A stretch of DNA of 64,000 nucleotides from NCBI GenBank assembly GCA_947304135.1, contig CAMYZZ010000001.1:24872-88871 (forward strand), in the 5' to 3' direction. The position numbers and the translations under genes are program-made. Source of the DNA: an uncultured Candidatus Saccharibacteria bacterium (GTDB lineage Bacteria > Patescibacteriota > Saccharimonadia > Saccharimonadales > Saccharimonadaceae). This document shows positions 9,595 through 18,407 of this stretch, in pieces; positions within the stretch are counted from its first letter, which is position 1; every line of letters starts with the position of its first letter. The notes beneath the pieces were generated by a model. That model was not told the DNA's origin and did no database searches. It worked only from the letters and a program-made list of their open reading frames with translations.

Positions 9595-10245
9595 TTAGCC
9601 TTTGATTTCTCGTTTCATGACGGCAGCTATGGACGTGTCGTCGTCGAAATTGTCCTTGTCTTTTGGGATGTAGCCGAGGAGGCAAGCAACCAGAGTTGGG
9701 AAAGTGAGCAGACCGACGAGGTGGCCGCCTTTGTCGACGACCAGGAAGAAGAAGCAATTCGTGCGCATAAATGCTGTCATAGCTTGCTCTAGATTGTAGT
9801 CTGAGCGGAGATAATAAACCTTTGGGTCGATAAATTTGGAGGCACGGTCGGTATCTTTGATTTCTAGAGAGTTGAGATGGCTGGTGTGGATGAGACCGAC
9901 AACTTGGTGGCCATCGGAAGATAGGACTGGAAAATGCGAGAGACCGGATTGGTATAGCTTGTCTAGCATCAAAGGTCCAAGAAAATCGTGCTCAAAGACA
10001 AAAGTAATATCCGCGCGCGGGGTCATGATATCGCCGACTTTACAGTCTTTGAAACTCATACAGGCGACAATCATGGCACGCTCTTTGCCAGATAAATAGT
10101 CTTTGGGAGTGCGGCCAATAACGCCTATCAAATCTTCTGTGGATTTTGGCACATAAGGAGGCTGGGGCTCCGGAGGTTTTTTCTCGCGGTATTTTTCAAG
10201 AATAGGATCCACCCATTTGGTAAGTTTGATCATGAAATTACTCAT
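9595..10245 (-). CDS. CBS-pair protein (CorC/CNNM-like, no DUF21 membrane domain)
   Basis: VGDIMTPRADI, GLSHFPV, VVDKGGHLVGLLT. Confidence 0.8.
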   Translation of the reverse strand: MSNFMIKLTKWVDPILEKYREKKPPEPQPPYVPKSTEDLIGVIGRTPKDYLSGKERAMIVACMSFKDCKVGDIMTPRADITFVFEHDFLGPLMLDKLYQSGLSHFPVLSSDGHQVVGLIHTSHLNSLEIKDTDRASKFIDPKVYYLRSDYNLEQAMTAFMRTNCFFFLVVDKGGHLVGLLTFPTLVACLLGYIPKDKDNFDDDTSIAAVMKREIKG

Positions 10246-10305
10246 GGCACTAATCCCTTTTTTATGCTAGTATTATTATATCATATTCGAATTGCAAGGA
10301 GGAGA

Positions 10306-11025
10306 ATGAACGAAAAAGGAAAAAATATCGGGTGGATTGTAGCAGTCGTAGTTCTGATCGTTGGGTTTTTGGGCGTTGTGATTTGGAGAATGGCTGACAA
10401 AAAAGCAAATCAAGTTGACTATAGTAAATATGATGTTAACTCTATAATTGCCGGGAACGAAGACAACGGCGGGATTGGTGACCATGTCAAAGGATCTGCT
10501 GACGCGCCGGTGGTGATATATGAATATGCGGACTATCAATGTTCTGGGTGTGCCTCGGCGAATCCACGCGTAAACAAGTTGCTTACGGAATACGACGGCA
10601 AGCTAGCGGTGGTGTACCGAAATTTCTTATTAAGCTATCACCAGAATGGAACGGCGGCAGCTAGCGCGGCGGAAGCGGCGGGGCTCCAGGGCTATTTTAA
10701 AGAATACGCGGACAAGCTATTTGCCAACCAATCTGTCTGGTCTAGCGCAACTGGCAATTCTCGCACGGACATGTTTGTAGATTTGTTTAGAAACGTGACT
10801 GGTGGCGAGGGTGACGAAGAAAAGTTTATTGCCGATATGGGCAGCGCCGAGGTGAAGGCTAAAATCGACTTTGATACGGGACTATCAGAAGATCTTGATA
10901 TTCCTGGGACACCTTCATTCTTCTTAAACGGGGAGAGGATTGACCTAACTAATGTCTCCACTGAAGACGAATTTATGAAGCTGATGCGCGAGAAGATTGA
11001 CGCTGCGCTGAAAGTGGCAAAATAG
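10306..11025 (+). CDS. Membrane-anchored DsbA/BdbD-family thioredoxin-fold protein
   Basis: DHVKG, EYADYQCSGC (CxxC), VYRNF, GTPSFFLNG; SD AGGAGG before ATG 10306. Confidence 0.9.
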   Translation: MNEKGKNIGWIVAVVVLIVGFLGVVIWRMADKKANQVDYSKYDVNSIIAGNEDNGGIGDHVKGSADAPVVIYEYADYQCSGCASANPRVNKLLTEYDGKLAVVYRNFLLSYHQNGTAAASAAEAAGLQGYFKEYADKLFANQSVWSSATGNSRTDMFVDLFRNVTGGEGDEEKFIADMGSAEVKAKIDFDTGLSEDLDIPGTPSFFLNGERIDLTNVSTEDEFMKLMREKIDAALKVAK

Positions 11026-11031
11026 TATTTG

Positions 11032-11060
11032 AAAAAAGCGGCCGTGGTGGCCGCTTTTTT
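11032..11060 (+). terminator. Intrinsic terminator of the DsbA-family gene
   Basis: AAAAAAGCGGCC-GTGGT-GGCCGCTTTTTT. Confidence 0.85.
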
Positions 11061-11090
11061 GTTGGTGTGCTGGCTGGACAAGAACACGAG

Positions 11091-11356
11091 AAAAGCCTCC
11101 GGCTATCCTGCCAGAGGCTTTTGCGCTTTTTACCAGCGAAACTTATATGGTGCTGTCACGTTCGAGCAGTAAGGGACTGCTGAGTAAAATCGCAACTTAC
11201 ACCCCCTAAACAATTTTCGTTTCGATGAACTCAAGGCCGAGGCCTAAAGGTTCGTGCGACTTTTTACGTGCATAAGCACGCTTAAGTCCGATACGCATGT
11301 ACTGACGTACTCCTGTTTAGTTTTATCGGCTTACGACGTCTTGGAAAAAGCCGACC
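11091..11356 (-). ncRNA. Candidate ~265-nt structured RNA of unknown class (contains a possible 30-aa ORF)
   Basis: Own TTGCTT-17-TACAAT promoter, terminator AAAAGCCTC..GGAGGCTTTT at 11091-11122, several hairpins, no long ORF. Confidence 0.5.
11206..11298 (-). CDS. Possible 30-aa small protein (MRIGLKRAYARKKSHEPLGLGLEFIETKIV)
   Basis: AGGAG 11 nt upstream of ATG inside the candidate RNA; no recognisable family. Confidence 0.3.
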   Translation of the reverse strand: MRIGLKRAYARKKSHEPLGLGLEFIETKIV

Positions 11357-11361
11357 TATTT

Positions 11362-11390
11362 ATTGTATCAAAAAATGGCCAAAAAAGCAA
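11362..11390 (-). promoter_or_regulatory. Sigma70-type promoter TTGCTT-N17-TACAAT with extended TG
   Basis: Read directly; 17-nt spacer ending in TGA. Confidence 0.7.
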
Positions 11391-11457
11391 CCCCTGACAC
11401 CGGTTATGGCTTTAGTTGGAAATTTTTGCGGTTTTTATGTCTGGTTAGGTGAGAGAA

Positions 11458-11799
11458 CTAATCATTTTTATAAAGCGTGGTGGTGATGTCGTAGAGTTTT
11501 TGGATATGATTTTCAAGAAAGTAATAATGTTTAATATAGAAGGCGGTGATAATAAAGAGCAAAGCCGCAATAATGGAAGCAAAAATTGTAAATGGGCCGC
11601 CAACAAAAATGATACCATGGAGAGCAATTGTCATCATGACGAGGGTCAAAGCGACGAAAAATAGCATGACTATAAGATGTACAGCGCGCTCGTGTTGGAA
11701 ATTTCTGACCATTTCGGAGTGATAAATTTTGAGCTCGGAAGTTGGGTGCTTGGCGGCTTCTTTGATGAATTTTTCGTAGTTTTTGATGCGGTTTTCCAT
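11458..11799 (-). CDS. Uncharacterised two-TM membrane protein
   Basis: FQHERAVHLIV..YIKHYYFLEN.IQKLY pattern; ATG 6 nt after TGCTATAAT (ORF-track N-terminus is spurious). Confidence 0.8.
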   Translation of the reverse strand: MENRIKNYEKFIKEAAKHPTSELKIYHSEMVRNFQHERAVHLIVMLFFVALTLVMMTIALHGIIFVGGPFTIFASIIAALLFIITAFYIKHYYFLENHIQKLYDITTTLYKND

Positions 11800-11836
11800 A
11801 AGGTAATTATAGCACGGTCTCTTGCTGTAGTAGCTT

Positions 11837-11883
11837 TTGGCTTCAGCCTGGAAAATTCTTGCAATTTTTATGTTTAGCCAGGC
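11837..11883. repeat. Half-copy of a dispersed palindromic element; forms a hairpin just after the surface-protein stop
   Basis: TTGGCTTCAGCCTGGAAAAT (11837-11856) identical to 61974-61993; minus strand GCCTGG...CCAGGC hairpin. Confidence 0.7.
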
Positions 11884-11899
11884 GGTTTTTAAAGCTAGG

Positions 11900-12055
11900 T
11901 TAGCGAACAAGACAAACCACATCGAGCGAGCCCGTACGATAGGTGTCGCTGTAGATGAAGGCGTACACGCTATCGACGTGGAGGTAGTAGGCGCGGTTAG
12001 TAGAAGCGCGCGGAGTAGACGACCAATAGTTGCCGGACCAGCCCGTAGTATTGTA
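11900..12055 (-). other. Putative DGR variable region (VR)
   Basis: Last 51 sense codons contain no A-ending codon; 17 of 19 codons at 11942-11998 are NNC; located at the extreme C-terminus of a CLec-like domain. Confidence 0.65.
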
Positions 12056-14950
12056 TAGAGCTTCGTCCTCACCATAGGTGTTGATTAGGGATTGAAATTC
12101 AGATTGAGATGGAACGCCAGTACCGGAAGGACAAAGGGATGCGGTATTATCGAAGGTTGCGGTTCCTTGGCTAGATTTGGTATAGCAAGCACCGGTAGCT
12201 CCAAAGTCACCAATTAGTTTAATGTATTCAACGCTATTATAGGTAAAGGTGCCTTTGTTTGCGGTTGCAACACATGCGCCCTGTAGCGATGGGCGTGGTA
12301 GTGCGTAAAATGTTATAGTAGTTGTACTTATAGAGTCATTATTTGTTACTGTTATAGTTTGCTGTCCAGTACTGTCGAGTCCGGTAGAATATCCCGTACA
12401 GCTATATCCAGATGGACAAGTAACTCTAGATAGATAGTAGCCAGAGCTTGGTGTGACGGTTACGGTCTTACTGCCGCCATATGGCACGGAGAGGCTAGAT
12501 GCGCCGGAAGTAGTGTTGTTGTTGCTGATGTTGACGGTATAGTTATTGGCGGCACAGACGGCATAGTAGGTAGTGTTGCCAGTAATAGTTCTAGAAGTTC
12601 CGCCAGTATACTGTGTGCCGGAAGCGCTACCTTCGGCCCATTTACAACTATGGCCAGTCTTAGAGATGGCTGGGAGAGTGAAGGAGTTGGAAGTATTGCT
12701 ATAGGAGGCTGTCAAAGTAGCTGCACCAGCACCGTAGGTAAACGTATTGGTCGAGCCGACCCAAGTACCGGAACCGCTAAGGCTCCAGGAGGAGAATGGA
12801 CGAGTGACACTGGTTGGGGAGCCTGTATAGGAAGCCCCCTGTCCGTTACCGTCATAGGAGATTGTATAGCTAGGGCCAGCGGTTGGGTTAGAGATGATAA
12901 TAGATTCGTTGTAGGTGCCGGTACGCTGATTGTTAACGAACCCAGATTGTGACCAGGTGCCACCATTGGGGTTGACTGTTAAGGTGTAGTGGTTATCCCA
13001 CTTAGCGTAAAGATTCTTGGTAGTATTATGTGTGCCACAATAGCTTGCAGTCTGGGCGGCGGTGAGAGTGGCGCCATTAGCGAACACTACCGAACCACTA
13101 GCAGATTCTGCCCATCCTAAGAAAGTATAGCCCGTGATTGAGAATGCATTGCTGGTTAATGTTACTGCCTGGTTGTATGTCATTGACGAATCGCTCATTG
13201 AGCCACTGGCAGTAGTGCCGGATGGGGCGTTAGAGTTGTAAGTGATAGGACAGGTATTGATGGCGCCATTAGCAGTGACGGAGACGTCATTGTCTGGCAT
13301 GGTAAATTGATTGTTATTGATAGTCACACCACCAGAGTTGACGGTCCAGCTGGAGAAATGGTAGCCAGTACTAGCGGTGGCGCCAATGTTAACTGTACTA
13401 CCATAATTATGGCTGCCAGAGCCTGTAGTAGATGCAATGTTTGTGCCTGCAGTGACAGTGACGTTGTGAGAGTTAACAGCACACACAGCATAGAACTCCG
13501 TGTTGGCGGTGATGGTGACGTTGGTTTCTCCGCTAGCGTGGGAGGCTCCGGAGGCACTGTTCTCATGCCAGGTGCAGGTATGGCCGGTCTTGGTGACAGT
13601 TGGGAGAGTGAAGGTGTTTGAAGTGCTGTTATAGCCGGCGGTTAGGGTGTCGCTAGCGATATTGTAGGTATAGGTATTTGTAGTTGTGTCAAAGGAGCCA
13701 GATGGAGAGCCGCCGCCAGTTGCAGTTAGTGTCCAGCCAGTGAAAGGCCTACTGACGCTGGTTGGGGCTGGAGGGTTAGGATTATAGGTTGCACTTTGAG
13801 AGTTGTCATTGTAGGAGATTGTATATGTGGCGTTGGCAGATGGAGTACCAATAACTTTTGTACTGCCGTAGTCTCCTGGGAAGGTTTGCGTAGAGGTGGA
13901 GCCGCTCCAGGTGCCGCCATTTGGATCTACTGTAAGGGTGGAGCTAACAATAGTCCACTGCGCATTAAGAGTTTTTGTACCAGAGATGACAGATGCGGTT
14001 GGGTCAGCTGTAACAGTGACATTATCGCCTGGTAGATACGGATTTGTTCTACTTCCCTTTTCCCCTTCTTCTGCTTCTGGATCTACGTAATTACCAAAGG
14101 TATACCCTACTAAGGTTGGGGCGGTATCTGGAATAGTGAAGGTGTAGGATGTTGCGGAGGCAGAGGCGGTTTGGTTGACTGGGAAGTTCTCAATATCTGA
14201 TGGGTCTACACCACTTGGTGCGTTCTTGTCGAAGTAGAGAGTGTAGTCAATGGACTCTGCATTAGCGATAGCAGTGAAGAGGAGCTGGTTGGTGTAGGAA
14301 CCGGCGGTGATAGTAGTATCTACGCCAACATTAATATCTACATTAGCCTTTGTAGAAGTGGTTGGTGACATGAGCATGCCAATCTGGTCTGGGTTACCAT
14401 GGGCTGGGACTACAGTAGCAGAAGATGTGAGAGGGTTGGTGTAGTTCCAGAAGTTGAGGTTAGAGGCTGTACTAGTGGAGGTTGGGATGACATGGGAGTC
14501 CGCAGTGTCTCCTTGGACGAGGTCTGTGGTGTATTGGTTGTTGTGGTCTTTGCCATTAGCCTCTACATAGAGTTTGTAGCCGGTAATGTTACTGGTAGAG
14601 ACATCCACGATGGCGCGCTTGGTGGAAGTAACGCCAGCTGCAGTTGGGGTGAGATCGAAGGAGAGGAGGGAGAGGTCAGAGGTGGCGGTACTATCTAGGA
14701 TGCGGACGGAGATAGAATTGCCTAGGGTGAGGTTAACATCTAGGGATTTGCTGGTTTGGTCGGCGAAGGCGGGAGTGGAGAGGGTGGTTAAGATGGCTAG
14801 GGATAGAGTGGCGGCGGTGCCGAGGCCCAGTATACCCTTGATACTAATCATGCCAAAGGAGGAAATACCGCAAAAAGATAAAATAATTGTTGCTAAACAT
14901 CGACATAGGGTTCTATGTGCGCTTTTTGCTAGCTCCTTGAAGCTTGGCAT
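11900..14950 (-). CDS. Large secreted surface protein: N-terminal beta domain, InlB-B/Listeria-Bacteroides-type repeats, C-terminal C-type-lectin-like (DUF1566/FISUMP-like) domain; probable DGR target
   Basis: SD AAGGAGGT before ATG 14950; signal peptide; TVDPNGG/TGYTFLGW/FTMPDNDVSVTAN repeats; C-terminus CPSG..VPS.SEF..L..YWSST..AYYL..VVCLVR. Confidence 0.85.
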   Translation of the reverse strand: MPSFKELAKSAHRTLCRCLATIILSFCGISSFGMISIKGILGLGTAATLSLAILTTLSTPAFADQTSKSLDVNLTLGNSISVRILDSTATSDLSLLSFDLTPTAAGVTSTKRAIVDVSTSNITGYKLYVEANGKDHNNQYTTDLVQGDTADSHVIPTSTSTASNLNFWNYTNPLTSSATVVPAHGNPDQIGMLMSPTTSTKANVDINVGVDTTITAGSYTNQLLFTAIANAESIDYTLYFDKNAPSGVDPSDIENFPVNQTASASATSYTFTIPDTAPTLVGYTFGNYVDPEAEEGEKGSRTNPYLPGDNVTVTADPTASVISGTKTLNAQWTIVSSTLTVDPNGGTWSGSTSTQTFPGDYGSTKVIGTPSANATYTISYNDNSQSATYNPNPPAPTSVSRPFTGWTLTATGGGSPSGSFDTTTNTYTYNIASDTLTAGYNSTSNTFTLPTVTKTGHTCTWHENSASGASHASGETNVTITANTEFYAVCAVNSHNVTVTAGTNIASTTGSGSHNYGSTVNIGATASTGYHFSSWTVNSGGVTINNNQFTMPDNDVSVTANGAINTCPITYNSNAPSGTTASGSMSDSSMTYNQAVTLTSNAFSITGYTFLGWAESASGSVVFANGATLTAAQTASYCGTHNTTKNLYAKWDNHYTLTVNPNGGTWSQSGFVNNQRTGTYNESIIISNPTAGPSYTISYDGNGQGASYTGSPTSVTRPFSSWSLSGSGTWVGSTNTFTYGAGAATLTASYSNTSNSFTLPAISKTGHSCKWAEGSASGTQYTGGTSRTITGNTTYYAVCAANNYTVNISNNNTTSGASSLSVPYGGSKTVTVTPSSGYYLSRVTCPSGYSCTGYSTGLDSTGQQTITVTNNDSISTTTITFYALPRPSLQGACVATANKGTFTYNSVEYIKLIGDFGATGACYTKSSQGTATFDNTASLCPSGTGVPSQSEFQSLINTYGEDEALYNTTGWSGNYWSSTPRASTNRAYYLHVDSVYAFIYSDTYRTGSLDVVCLVR

Positions 14951-15186
14951 TTGACCTCCTTTAGTATGATTAGTAAGTGTCTGGTCGCACAACCCCGCCA
15001 GGAGTATCAAGGCTAAAATAACAATCCACTATTATTTTTATGCCAGGTATCGCATTCATAGAACGAAAAATGCGACCATCTACTAGTCGCTAAACCAAGT
15101 CTGCTCCAAAAAACGAACAAACGCGTAGATGATCGCATCTCACGCTCGTTTCTTGGATATAAAAATATTAAACAGACTGGTTTAGC
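14951..15186 (-). promoter_or_regulatory. 236-nt structured 5' leader (possible riboswitch/attenuator) downstream of a TTGCGC-17-TATAAT promoter
   Basis: Helix 15186-15173:15103-15089; crossing 13-bp helix 15137-15125:15083-15071; short GCGAC/GTCGC hairpin followed by ATTTTT. Confidence 0.55.
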
Positions 15187-15250
15187 AATTTAATTATACC
15201 AACATAAAAAATTTAGCGCAAGTTTTTTGCGCTAAATTGAATAATAGTAT

Positions 15251-16057
15251 CTATATCTGAATCAGGAGGATGATGAGGACGATGAGGGAGATAATGACGC
15301 GGTAGATACCAAAAGCCTTTAAGGAGTTGGACTTTTTGAGGTATTTGAGACAGAAAGAGATCGCAAAGAGGCCGGAGGCAAAGGCTACGATGTTGGCCAG
15401 GGTGAGGACACTGAAATTGCTTATCAGATAATCACGCGTAGTGGAAGAAATGAGAGTCTTAGCGCAGACTGCCGTCATGAGTGGAATAGAGACTAAGAAG
15501 GAATAATCAGCTGAAGATTTAGAGTTAAGACCCATGAGGCGACCAGCAACGATAGTGCTGCCAGAGCGAGAGACACCCGGGATGAGCGCAAAGACCTGGG
15601 CAAGACCAATAATAAGGGCGCGTGGCTTGGTGAGGTAATTCTCGTTTTTTAGCGCAGACTTTTTAGGAAGTTTATCAACGATAATCATCAAGATACCAAC
15701 GACACCCATGGCGATGGCGATAGTGTAGAGCGAGGAGAAAAACGGGGATTCTTCGATGAAGTGGCTCAACGCCAGACCAGCGAGACCAGCTGGGATGCAG
15801 GTGATGATGATGTTGAGGGCTAATTTATAATTGTGCTTTTTGAAGATGTCTTTTATAATCTCGACGATGCGCTTGCGATAGTAGATGAGAAGGGCGAGGA
15901 GAGTGCCAAAGTTGATTAGCTCTAAAAAGAGATGGAAATCGTCTGCGCGGCCGCCGATGAGCTGTTGGACGAGTTCTAGGTGCCCAGATGAAGAGACTGG
16001 GATGAATTCTGTGAGGCCTTGGACAAGGCCGAGTAGTAAACCGATAAAAATATTCAT
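15251..16057 (-). CDS. uppP: Undecaprenyl-diphosphate phosphatase (BacA family)
   Basis: GLVQGLTEFIPVSSSGHL, GTLLALLIYY, AQVFALIPGVSRSGSTI. Confidence 0.95.
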   Translation of the reverse strand: MNIFIGLLLGLVQGLTEFIPVSSSGHLELVQQLIGGRADDFHLFLELINFGTLLALLIYYRKRIVEIIKDIFKKHNYKLALNIIITCIPAGLAGLALSHFIEESPFFSSLYTIAIAMGVVGILMIIVDKLPKKSALKNENYLTKPRALIIGLAQVFALIPGVSRSGSTIVAGRLMGLNSKSSADYSFLVSIPLMTAVCAKTLISSTTRDYLISNFSVLTLANIVAFASGLFAISFCLKYLKKSNSLKAFGIYRVIISLIVLIILLIQI

Positions 16058-16076
16058 AATCTATATTATATACTAA

Positions 16077-17555
16077 TTAGTTGGCTTGATCCTGCGGAAG
16101 GTCGGAGATTGGGATGCGGCCATAGGTATCTGTGCCGTTTGAGAGGAGTTGGTCGCCACCGCTGGCTTGGTCGTTTCCTGGTTGGTCGTTTTCTGGGGCT
16201 GGATTATCTGGCGAGTCTGGGCTTGGGCCGTCTTCTGGCTCTGGATCAGTGTCTCCGTAGGTCGTAATAGTATTCATTACGTTAATTGCCTCTATCACGG
16301 TTTCGTTGTTGATAGCAACTGAGTAGGTACCGTATTTGAGCGATGAGCTAGAGTAGATAATTGTGCGGAAACTATTGCCAGCGGTAACCTTGATGATTTC
16401 GTTACTTCCAGAATCTAGAATAGCAAGAGTAGATTTAGCATCATAGGCTTTGTCCAGCGTGATTACAAGCGTGTTCTGCTTGGAGCTGTCGCTTGGTTTC
16501 TCTAGCATATCTGAGCCTAGGGCGATTAGGGTACCACCATTGATAGTGTAGCCGGTCTCAGTGTCAATGCCGGCGTTACCGCCGTTGCTCGAACCTACGA
16601 CGTAGGTTGCGCCGCCGTTGATAATAAGATCCTTATTAGAGTCAATACCGTCACCATCAGCCTGAATGAAGATTTCGCCATCGTTAATAGTGATTGTACC
16701 GCCATCGCCGCCAGCATTGATACCATCATCAGTAGCAAAGACATTGATGACGCCACCATCTATGGTAATGTCATTGGATTTAGTAGTGATTCCCTCACCC
16801 TCGGCCTGTTTGCCGGTGACGTCAAGCTTGCCAGAATCGCCCTTGATAGTAAGAGCGCCGTCAGAATAAATACAGCCATCATAGTCGGAAGCTCCGCCGT
16901 CAGAGAGGATATTCTCTGTCCCGTCGGCAAGTTCAATAGTGAGAGCGTTTGGCGTAACATTGGCAATTGCAGCCATTTCAACAGCAGAGATAGTGGCATT
17001 ATTTAGATAGAGAGTAACCTCGCCGTTAGCATTGACGATGACTGAATGGTCTATAAGTTCACCTGTCAGCTCGTAGACGCCTGGCTCAGTGATTTCTAGG
17101 TTGGCAGACTGCTCTGTAAGATCAAAGCTATCTGTGAAATCTTTGTCCACTACTGCTGGACTTGGAGAAGGATTATTAGGGGTTTTATTATTGTTAGCAT
17201 TTGTAATCATGATAATTGCTACTACGGCGCAGACAACCAAAGCGGCCGCAATGATAATGAGAGCGATCATACGAGTGTTGACTGGAGGCTTAGGAGAGCG
17301 AACCGGAATGTCTGGCATAGGGTCGGAGTCTGGGATGGTTGAGGCTGGCTGGATTGGAGATGGCTGAGCCGGGAGTGGCTGAACTGGAGATATAGCTGGA
17401 GATGACTCTGGGACTGGTTGCGGTTCTGGAGTTAGCGCAGGAGCAGGCTCAGCGATTGGCTGTGGAGCAGGCTGCGGCGCCGGCGTTGGCGCTGGGTTAG
17501 TTGGCTCCGGGATGGGGTTTTGGTTTGGAGAAAAAGATTGGTTGTCGTTATTCAT
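16077..17555 (-). CDS. Second Cthe_2159/DUF4353 beta-helix protein with Pro-rich N-terminal cytoplasmic tail and one TM
   Basis: PGVYELTG, LYLNNATI, DGCIYS, DDGINA, DGIDSN, AGID repeats; ATG 6 nt after TGCTATAAT. Confidence 0.85.
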   Translation of the reverse strand: MNNDNQSFSPNQNPIPEPTNPAPTPAPQPAPQPIAEPAPALTPEPQPVPESSPAISPVQPLPAQPSPIQPASTIPDSDPMPDIPVRSPKPPVNTRMIALIIIAAALVVCAVVAIIMITNANNNKTPNNPSPSPAVVDKDFTDSFDLTEQSANLEITEPGVYELTGELIDHSVIVNANGEVTLYLNNATISAVEMAAIANVTPNALTIELADGTENILSDGGASDYDGCIYSDGALTIKGDSGKLDVTGKQAEGEGITTKSNDITIDGGVINVFATDDGINAGGDGGTITINDGEIFIQADGDGIDSNKDLIINGGATYVVGSSNGGNAGIDTETGYTINGGTLIALGSDMLEKPSDSSKQNTLVITLDKAYDAKSTLAILDSGSNEIIKVTAGNSFRTIIYSSSSLKYGTYSVAINNETVIEAINVMNTITTYGDTDPEPEDGPSPDSPDNPAPENDQPGNDQASGGDQLLSNGTDTYGRIPISDLPQDQAN

Positions 17556-17647
17556 AGATATATTATAGCATAAGCATTTTAGGAATAAAATCCGAGACCA
17601 AAAAACCGGCGCGAATTGCACCGGTTTAGAAATACTTGGTGAGGCAA

Positions 17648-18349
17648 TTATGCTAAGTTGGTGTGGACGGCGGTGACGTCGTCTAGGTCGTCAATTGCGT
17701 CTAGGAGTTTTTCGGCTTTTTCTAGATCGTCGCCGGCAAGCTCGACAGGAGTATTGGAAAGATATTTGAGCTCGGCGCTGGTAACATTTAGGCCGGCGTC
17801 AACTAGGGCCTGGCGAACTTTGGCAAGGTCGCTATCGGCGGTGATAATCTCGATGCCATCATCTTCTTCGGTGGCATCCTCAGCACCGGCATCTAGAGCA
17901 ATCATCATAGCATCGTCACCTTTGTCGGTGATAACAATCTCACCTTTGCGCTGGAACTGGAACATCACGCTGCCTGGATCTGCCATGCGGCCACCATTTT
18001 TGGTGAGGGCATTTCTGACTTCTGGCATGGTGCGATTCTTATTGTCGGTTGCGACTTCGATGATGATGCCGATGCCACCTGGGCCGTAGGCTTCGTAAAT
18101 CTCCTCGACAAGAGCCGCAGAAGACTTGTCTGCTGCACGAGCAATAGCGCGCTCAATGTTGGCTTTTGGCATGTTGGCATGACGAGCTTTTTCTAGAACC
18201 ATAGCGAGGCTAGGGTTCATGTTTGGGTCTGTGCCACCGCGAGCAGCAATCGCAATCTGATTGCCAATCTTAGTAAAGAGTGCGCCGCGTTTTGCATCGA
18301 CGACGGCTTTTTGACGCTTGGTGGTTGCCCATTTACTGTGTCCAGACAT
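17648..18349 (-). CDS. yebC: YebC/PmpR family protein
   Basis: MSGHSKWATTK, NMPKANIERAI, YEAYGPGG, TDNKNRT, DDLDDV. Confidence 0.95.
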   Translation of the reverse strand: MSGHSKWATTKRQKAVVDAKRGALFTKIGNQIAIAARGGTDPNMNPSLAMVLEKARHANMPKANIERAIARAADKSSAALVEEIYEAYGPGGIGIIIEVATDNKNRTMPEVRNALTKNGGRMADPGSVMFQFQRKGEIVITDKGDDAMMIALDAGAEDATEEDDGIEIITADSDLAKVRQALVDAGLNVTSAELKYLSNTPVELAGDDLEKAEKLLDAIDDLDDVTAVHTNLA

Positions 18350-18407
18350 ATAAATCCTCAAAAATTAATGATATAAAACTTGTAATGATTATAACATTTT
18401 TTGCTAA

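Follow-up and report, generated by a model that had tools for sequence, protein, structure and literature searches.

A lectin-tipped surface protein and its variable tip

The window analyzed here, the whole stretch of 64,000 nucleotides that was studied (C1:24872-88871), comes from the genome G000 of a Saccharibacteria (TM7) bacterium. It contains a surface-protein gene on the minus strand at 11900-14950, and the subject of this work is the 3' end of this gene, which encodes a lectin-like tip with the apparent footprint of a diversity-generating retroelement (DGR). The G000 assembly, a draft of 711 kb, comprises 22 contigs at 96.7% completeness. Saccharibacteria live as obligate epibionts, and which hosts they can colonize probably depends on their surface adhesins.

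The open reading frame (ORF) extends over 11900-15010, with a probable start at the ATG at 14950, which gives 1016 amino acids plus a stop codon and a C-terminus reading ...CPSGTGVPSQSEFQSLINTYGEDEALYNTTGWSGNYWSSTPRASTNRAYYLHVDSVYAFIYSDTYRTGSLDVVCLVR. The database protein P0001 starts at the same ATG and also has 1016 residues; it forms a singleton cluster in the protein collection. The gene assignment is based on the ORF listing, on Pfam and on P0001. An N-terminal signal or anchor segment is followed by InlB-type B-repeats and Ig-like modules and by a C-terminal lectin-like domain. For the body of the protein, the Pfam matches Flg_new_2 and Flg_new, corresponding to InlB-type B-repeats, were the only ones obtained, and homologs of P0001 are labelled 'InlB B-repeat-containing protein [Candidatus Saccharibacteria bacterium]'. 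The predicted gene product is a large secreted or anchored adhesin-like protein.

The last 130 residues (11903-12292, minus strand) make up a C-type-lectin-like domain (CTLD), here called type A, which was assigned from a structure model, Foldseek and sub-threshold Pfam matches. Its motifs read CPSGTGVPS..EFQSLI..YG..YNTTGWSG.YWSST..AY.L.V.S...VVC(I/L)VR. The AlphaFold (AF2) model of these residues, calculated with a 10-sequence alignment, had a pLDDT of 93.9 and a pTM of 0.87. The top Foldseek matches in the PDB were all CTLDs (probability up to 0.99, TM 0.45-0.5), namely snake-venom CTLDs, Yersinia InvE, the C-terminal domain of Bdellovibrio Bd2740, BDCA2, CD72 and Mincle, indicating at the level of the model that the tip has a C-type-lectin fold. 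The VR of a DGR target gene lies in a ligand-binding domain with such a fold or an Ig fold, in most cases C-terminal (VR, variable region). With the last 132 residues, Pfam returned sub-threshold matches to InvE_AD, Lcl_C (DUF1566) and Fib_succ_major; the gathering threshold was reached neither for Lcl_C (22.3 bits, cut-off 34.9) nor for Fib_succ_major (18.4 bits, cut-off 33.9). Precomputed PF09603 / PF07603 matches are present in many of the Saccharibacteria homologs of P0001. Judged by these scores, the tip is a divergent relative of Fib_succ_major / Lcl_C (DUF1566) and not a scored member. It falls in the CLec2 / DUF1566 / Fib_succ_major target class. In the survey of Wu et al. (2018, PMC5758913), cellular DGRs with CLec2-class VRs have targets of category 'd' (DUF1566 / DUF823 / Fib_succ_major), the Legionella DGR being an example.

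None of the last 51 sense codons of the gene (12055-11903) ends in A, whereas A-ending codons account for 19.6% of the rest. For a single window, an A-free third-position run of this length has P ~1.5e-5; the second-longest run of this kind in the gene spans 29 codons. The 19-codon run at 11942-11998 (minus strand) contains 17 NNC codons (P ~1.7e-5 at the gene-wide C frequency of 41% at third positions, C3); other 19-codon windows in the gene reach at most 15. Adenine is depleted as well, at 15% in the last 47 codons versus 27% elsewhere. After correction for scanning about 1000 positions, the codon-bias P values are only moderately significant alone. It is the comparison with paralogs that makes the DGR signal strong, beyond these moderate figures.

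Two paralogs, C8:27109-28998 and C4:238-2196, share the type-A ending. The codon alignment with them delimits a hypervariable, VR-like segment of 45 codons (11903-12037, minus strand). Over 44 aligned sites in the tip, the numbers of variable first, second and third codon positions are 21, 21 and 6, compared with 7, 4 and 14 in the 51 codons that precede the Trp of NTTGW, the latter being an ordinary pattern (Fisher's test for positions 1+2, p = 1.5e-8). Three different bases occur among the three sequences in 16 columns of the tip. The variability is therefore found at the codon positions where a template A is expected to produce it (AAC/AAT to NNC/NNT). Third positions are variable in 4 of 42 tip codons and in 39 of 84 codons of the upstream lectin scaffold (p = 2e-5), a contrast that is not significant when the nearest 51 codons alone are used (p = 0.13). 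The stronger conservation of third positions in the tip than in the upstream scaffold fits resetting from a common template.

Other differences within the trio do not follow this scheme. There are indels of 1-2 codons, a W-to-L change in the YWSST motif of the C4 copy, GTG versus TCG in the window copy, and some C/G differences at third positions. These changes are not explained by adenine mutagenesis, and the indels, the W-to-L change and the GTG/TCG difference are possible signs of decay or independence of the tips. The window copy also lacks a 14-bp hairpin that follows the stop codon in the C8 and C4 copies.

An earlier sequence-only reading of the window had proposed a C-terminal C-type-lectin fold, a run of 51 codons without a single A-ending one and with 17 of 19 NNC, and variable codons derived from AAC/AAT in a template. 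The structure model, the codon counts and the paralog comparison agree with all of this, and so does the match to the adenines of a real template from a congener (see below). As far as sequence can tell, the tip carries a DGR footprint and the locus is a DGR-type variable tip, for which current hypermutation is unproven.

The retroelement on contig C11 and the template search

G000 has one reverse transcriptase (RT), which is encoded outside the window on the minus strand of contig C11 (C11:676-1830). The protein matches RVT_1 above the Pfam cut-off, its translation contains the motifs IGNLTSQ and YVDD, and in the PDB it is closest to 8ub7, a reverse transcriptase of 328 aa (E = 3e-22). The cassette consists, in this order on the minus strand, of the target gene (a 716-aa frame that ends at C11:2797), a gene for a 283-aa accessory protein with no Pfam or PDB match, and the RT gene. 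The template repeat (TR) at C11:~432-640 lies on the plus strand, downstream of the RT and inverted relative to both RT and VR. C11:1-4944 holds a complete DGR whose layout is unusual and recurs in the congener G150 (L051) and in G003 (L057). Contig C11 itself starts in a dispersed 55-nt repeat, 430 nt from the TR.

Over 207 nt of alignment, the C11 TR and VR differ at 25 positions, every one a TR adenine, and this pair marks the cassette as a bona fide DGR at the level of sequence. In this pair, and likewise in G150, TR and VR are identical for 25-30 nt beyond the stop codon. A genome-wide scan in which mismatches were allowed only at TR adenines identified the adjacent VR as the sole VR for the C11 TR. 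When the C11 TR was aligned with the window tip, 81 of 138 columns matched (~59%), 11 were gap columns, and 25 mismatches fell on a C, G or T of the TR; at the 3' end, the initiation of mutagenic homing (IMH) region, window tip and C11 TR have nothing in common. The C11 TR was considered as the template of the window tip and is refuted in this role by the alignment and the A-only scan. It is instead the template of another, related tip type ('type B') and serves only the adjacent gene.

A cognate TR with adenine-only mismatches to the window tip, the feature that defines a DGR target, was not found in the 22 contigs. BLASTN with the tip against the genome returned only three paralog copies and a 22-nt fragment of the C11 TR. 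No other TR-like sequence was detected in G000 by the A-only mismatch scan, by a six-frame hidden Markov model (HMM) search or by a scan for Asn-rich frames. An A-rich stretch on C11 (~25.2 kb) that came up in the A-only scan was low-complexity intergenic sequence and no TR. Scanning genome, metagenome and viral contig collections for exact patterns of the conserved 3' end, GTGGTTTGTNTTGTTCGCTAA, revealed no TR. The scans yielded one spurious match each in genome contigs and metagenome contigs, which belonged to a Bacteroidota metagenome-assembled genome (MAG) and an unrelated ORF, and none in viral contigs. Near the genes of the homologs P0016 and P0007, both of which are located at contig ends, no RT or TR was within reach. 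Within the assembly as searched, a TR matching the window tip appears to be absent.

The sequence-only reading had reported neither an RT nor a template repeat in the window, which is correct, and it had suggested looking for both in the whole genome. The RT was found, next to a TR/VR pair that differs at adenines only, and no template repeat differing from the tip at TR adenines alone is in the assembly, where the gapped C11 sequence is the sole TR. The idea of a hypervariable adhesin that is diversified in trans is accordingly upheld in part: the lectin tip, the DGR footprint and a DGR in the genome are there, and the cognate TR was not found.

Related templates and the origin of the tip

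We constructed a hypothetical TR with an A at every variable column of the trio, which encodes AYNLNVNSSNANINNNNNRTDSNNVVCIVR. In a BLAST search of 369 genomes of the genus, it matched TR-like sequences in 145 of them. The best match was a real TR from G150, a member of the same genus (84% over 128 nt, E = 7.5e-35), to which the inferred TR is as similar as to the VRs from which it was built. No match runs through the 3' end of the window tip, ...GTGGTTTGTATTGTTCGCTAA, and a TR with this end was thus not found among the 369 genomes.

G150 has a DGR cassette with the same architecture as that on C11 (RT 49% identical, accessory protein 24% identical). Its TR (L051, G150:C10) encodes ...GWSGNYWSSTENNSNNAYNLNVNSSNANVNNNNKTNSNNVVCYR, which is a type-A tip. 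Compared with a VR on another contig, G150:C17 (L052:12984-13157), this TR shows 15 mismatches without gaps, 15 of 15 at A. Compared with the adjacent VR, it shows 17 A-mismatches, 2 others at the 5' edge, and one extra codon inside an AAC run. Further type-A copies in G150 (C7, C28) do not match it. The G150 TR apparently writes a VR located on another contig, so that the type-A domain is evidently targeted in trans in the genus. The window tip is mismatched to the G150 TR at 26 of 46 A sites (57%) versus 21 of 89 other sites (24%, p = 2.5e-4), and the C8 and C4 paralogs behave in the same way.

G000 contains about 14 type-B and 4 type-A lectin domains, corresponding to ~18 lectin-tipped surface proteins. 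The DGR signature was seen on at least 7 of these tips, only one of which is matched by a template that is present. A second trio, of type B and Fib_succ_major-like, consists of the full-length genes C10:5480-7189, C1:10923-14075 and C9:4515-7799, all outside the window. Its tips have 25/22/6 variable sites and no indels, which is a cleaner footprint than that of the window trio, and third positions vary at 6 of 60 sites in the tip versus 23 of 40 upstream (p = 7e-7). A TR for this trio was not found in the assembly either, suggesting, together with the footprint, that orphaned tips are a pattern in G000.

The lectin-tipped proteins are also mosaics. The first ~100 residues of P0014 are near-identical to the window protein and are joined to a type-B end, and P0005 shares the middle of the window protein and has other ends. 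The nearest database relatives of P0001 are 60-62% identical over the last 237 amino acids, or have whole C-terminal modules swapped. Long near-identical stretches combined with different C-terminal modules in strain-level relatives such as P0014 and P0005 indicate that module swapping is a second route by which the family diversifies, at the level of strains. P0007 and P0016 each combine a lectin domain of type A with one of type B.

The footprint in the trio, the restriction of the C11 TR to one VR, its misfit to the window tip and the lack of any other TR make it most likely, with a probability of roughly 60%, that the tip was written by a DGR and is now an orphaned former target. The RT of a DGR would have copied a TR rich in AAC/AAT codons with misincorporation opposite adenines, and the resulting cDNA would have replaced the 3' end of the gene, the last 45 codons being written by mutagenic retrohoming. 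This retrohoming would have hit the window gene as well as the C8 and C4 paralogs after the divergence of the paralogs. The type-A template would since have been lost from the genome as assembled, leaving a C11 DGR that serves only its adjacent type-B gene. The tip may stay functional, as a fixed ligand-binding variant within the ~18-member lectin-tipped family. The fold, the footprint, the C11 DGR with its TR/VR pair, the lack of a matching TR in the assembly and the type-A TR of a congener with its VR on another contig are shown, whereas the loss of the TR behind the footprint and the end of homing are inferred.

Several points weigh against this account. The genome is 96.7% complete, and the contig with the DGR is broken off in a dispersed repeat close to it, so that a further TR could lie beyond the break or on an unbinned contig. 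Codon indels opposite AAC runs are present in accepted DGR pairs (PMC5758913), and the adjacent VR of G150 has an indel opposite an AAC run as well, so that the indels of the trio do not prove inactivity. The conserved third positions of the tip, moreover, point to fairly recent homing. A rival reading is an active remote target, diversified in trans by the C11 RT via a second, stand-alone TR that is absent from the draft. The RT is present and looks intact, in G150 a type-A VR and its TR are on separate contigs, the tip has more uniform third positions than the sequence upstream, the DGR contig begins in a repeat close to its TR in an incomplete genome, and two independent trios without TRs might mean that several TRs have gone unassembled. 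We nevertheless regard continuing diversification as rather unlikely. Four independent whole-assembly scans failed to produce a TR, none with this 3' end emerged from the genus genomes or from the pattern scans of genome, metagenome and viral contigs, and frequent homing from one TR would erase the indels and non-A substitutions that separate the trio. The absence of the 14-bp hairpin from the window copy, when C8 and C4 have it, speaks in the same direction.

It is very improbable that the tip is an ordinary paralog domain, shaped by diversifying selection and recombination on a surface loop without a retroelement ever being involved. The mosaic structure of the family (P0014, P0005) would be compatible with such an origin, as would the gene-wide C3, which is already 41%. 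However, selection does not fix third positions as C/T while positions 1-2 take three bases in 16 columns, the columns that vary fall on adenines of a real TR, and homologous tips in G150 and on C11 are demonstrably DGR-written. The notion that the C11 TR wrote the window tip can be practically discounted. Both belong to the same domain superfamily, with a common GNYWSST...AY.L motif and a 22-nt stretch that is 91% identical, but the gaps and the mismatches at non-adenine positions, the unrelated 3' ends, where homing initiates, and the A-only scan, which yields the adjacent VR alone, argue against it. Beyond the single tip, the DGR may have gone through successive generations of targeting, two trios of intact, full-length adhesin genes having been rewritten, each from one shared template, after the paralogs diverged, with both templates gone and the RT on a third; or one RT may have several stand-alone templates that were missed. 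We put forward this broader picture only tentatively. If true, Saccharibacteria DGRs would move to new targets through template turnover, and expressed genes would keep the earlier binding tips as frozen libraries; the alternative would mean that short-read assemblies routinely miss stand-alone templates served by one RT.

Earlier work has established DGRs in bacteria of the Candidate Phyla Radiation (CPR) as well as targets of the CLec2 type and remote targets (PMC5758913, PMC8144416). The system described here resembles CLec2-class cellular DGRs in several respects: the lectin fold of the C-terminal tip, whose Pfam matches are weak and divided between Lcl_C and Fib_succ_major, the surface exposure of the target, the variable NNC/NNT codons answering AAC/AAT, an RT with an IGxxxSQ motif, and codon indels, which PMC5758913 documents opposite AAC runs. 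It differs from them in the missing cognate TR of the window tip, in the position of the TR downstream of the RT and inverted in the genus of the window genome, and in the 283-aa accessory protein without Pfam or PDB match. The Treponema DGR has seven non-adjacent targets, and targets more than 100 kb away are known (Wu et al. 2018, PMC5758913). In such systems one RT/TR writes VRs in distant paralogs, as seen in G150 with its VR on another contig; every target of those systems matches the TR at non-adenine positions, whereas the window tip has no such TR. With the CPR / Patescibacteria DGR clade (Roux et al. 2021, PMC8144416; PMC5758913), it shares a cellular DGR, a tiny epibiont genome and surface-protein targets.

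What is less common is the presence of DGR-written tips without a template on intact, full-length genes. Surveys of CPR DGRs score TR-VR pairs near the RT (PMC8144416, PMC5758913), and TR-less VR families such as that of the window tip would go uncounted in them. Counting TR-VR pairs alone would therefore miss part of the DGR-shaped sequence in these genomes. If templates truly turn over, a minimal genome could both build and keep a repertoire of binding specificities.

The dispersed repeat and the flanking site

A copy of the dispersed 55-nt intergenic repeat, TTGGCTTCAGCCTGGAAAATTCTTGCAATTTTTATGTTTAGCCACCCGGTTTTT, is located next to the surface-protein gene at 11837-11892 (plus strand) and includes the hairpin after the stop codon. 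The genome has at least 14 copies. Apart from that in the window, they were found on C1 (2 more), C10 (2), C14 (2), C2, the end of C3, C4:130-183, C8:27001-27051, C9, C11:1-55, C17 and C18. In several places, the repeat is half of a larger imperfect palindrome of ~150 nt, which is MITE- or REP-like (miniature inverted-repeat transposable element; repetitive extragenic palindrome) and terminator-like. It often directly follows genes for lectin-tipped surface proteins, and both C11 and C3 break in it. The hairpin has a 6-bp stem (11878-11883 / 11846-11851) that begins 17 nt after the stop codon, with a fold z of -2.1. The stem that had been noticed in the sequence-only reading at about this distance is hence real, but as a member of a repeat it says nothing about a DGR, and we rejected the hairpin as a DGR cruciform because it is part of the dispersed repeat.

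The site after the CBS-domain and DsbA-like genes (window 9595-18361) was compared with the loci L057-L069 and looks like a rearrangement hotspot. In G000, an ORF for a small membrane protein (11458-11802) and the large surface-protein gene occupy the site after the DsbA-like gene. In G003, the DGR cassette sits directly after the DsbA-like gene, in the place of the window gene, and in G022 and G080 UppP and YebC are directly at that site, in the orientation opposite to G000. The site differs in further relatives too. Positional orthology of the window gene with the G003 DGR cassette was considered and is unproven by synteny, the site being a variable hotspot.

Downstream of the DsbA-like gene, at ~11206-11390 (plus strand as read), we also note an intergenic element. 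Its counterpart in G003 is 87% identical, whereas the flanking genes share only ~68% DNA identity with those of G003. The element can also be recognised in G080, G022, G078 and G048. Rfam returned no match at E <= 1, and RNAalifold predicts three stems, with 5 pairs preserved via double changes. The element is a candidate small RNA or leader.

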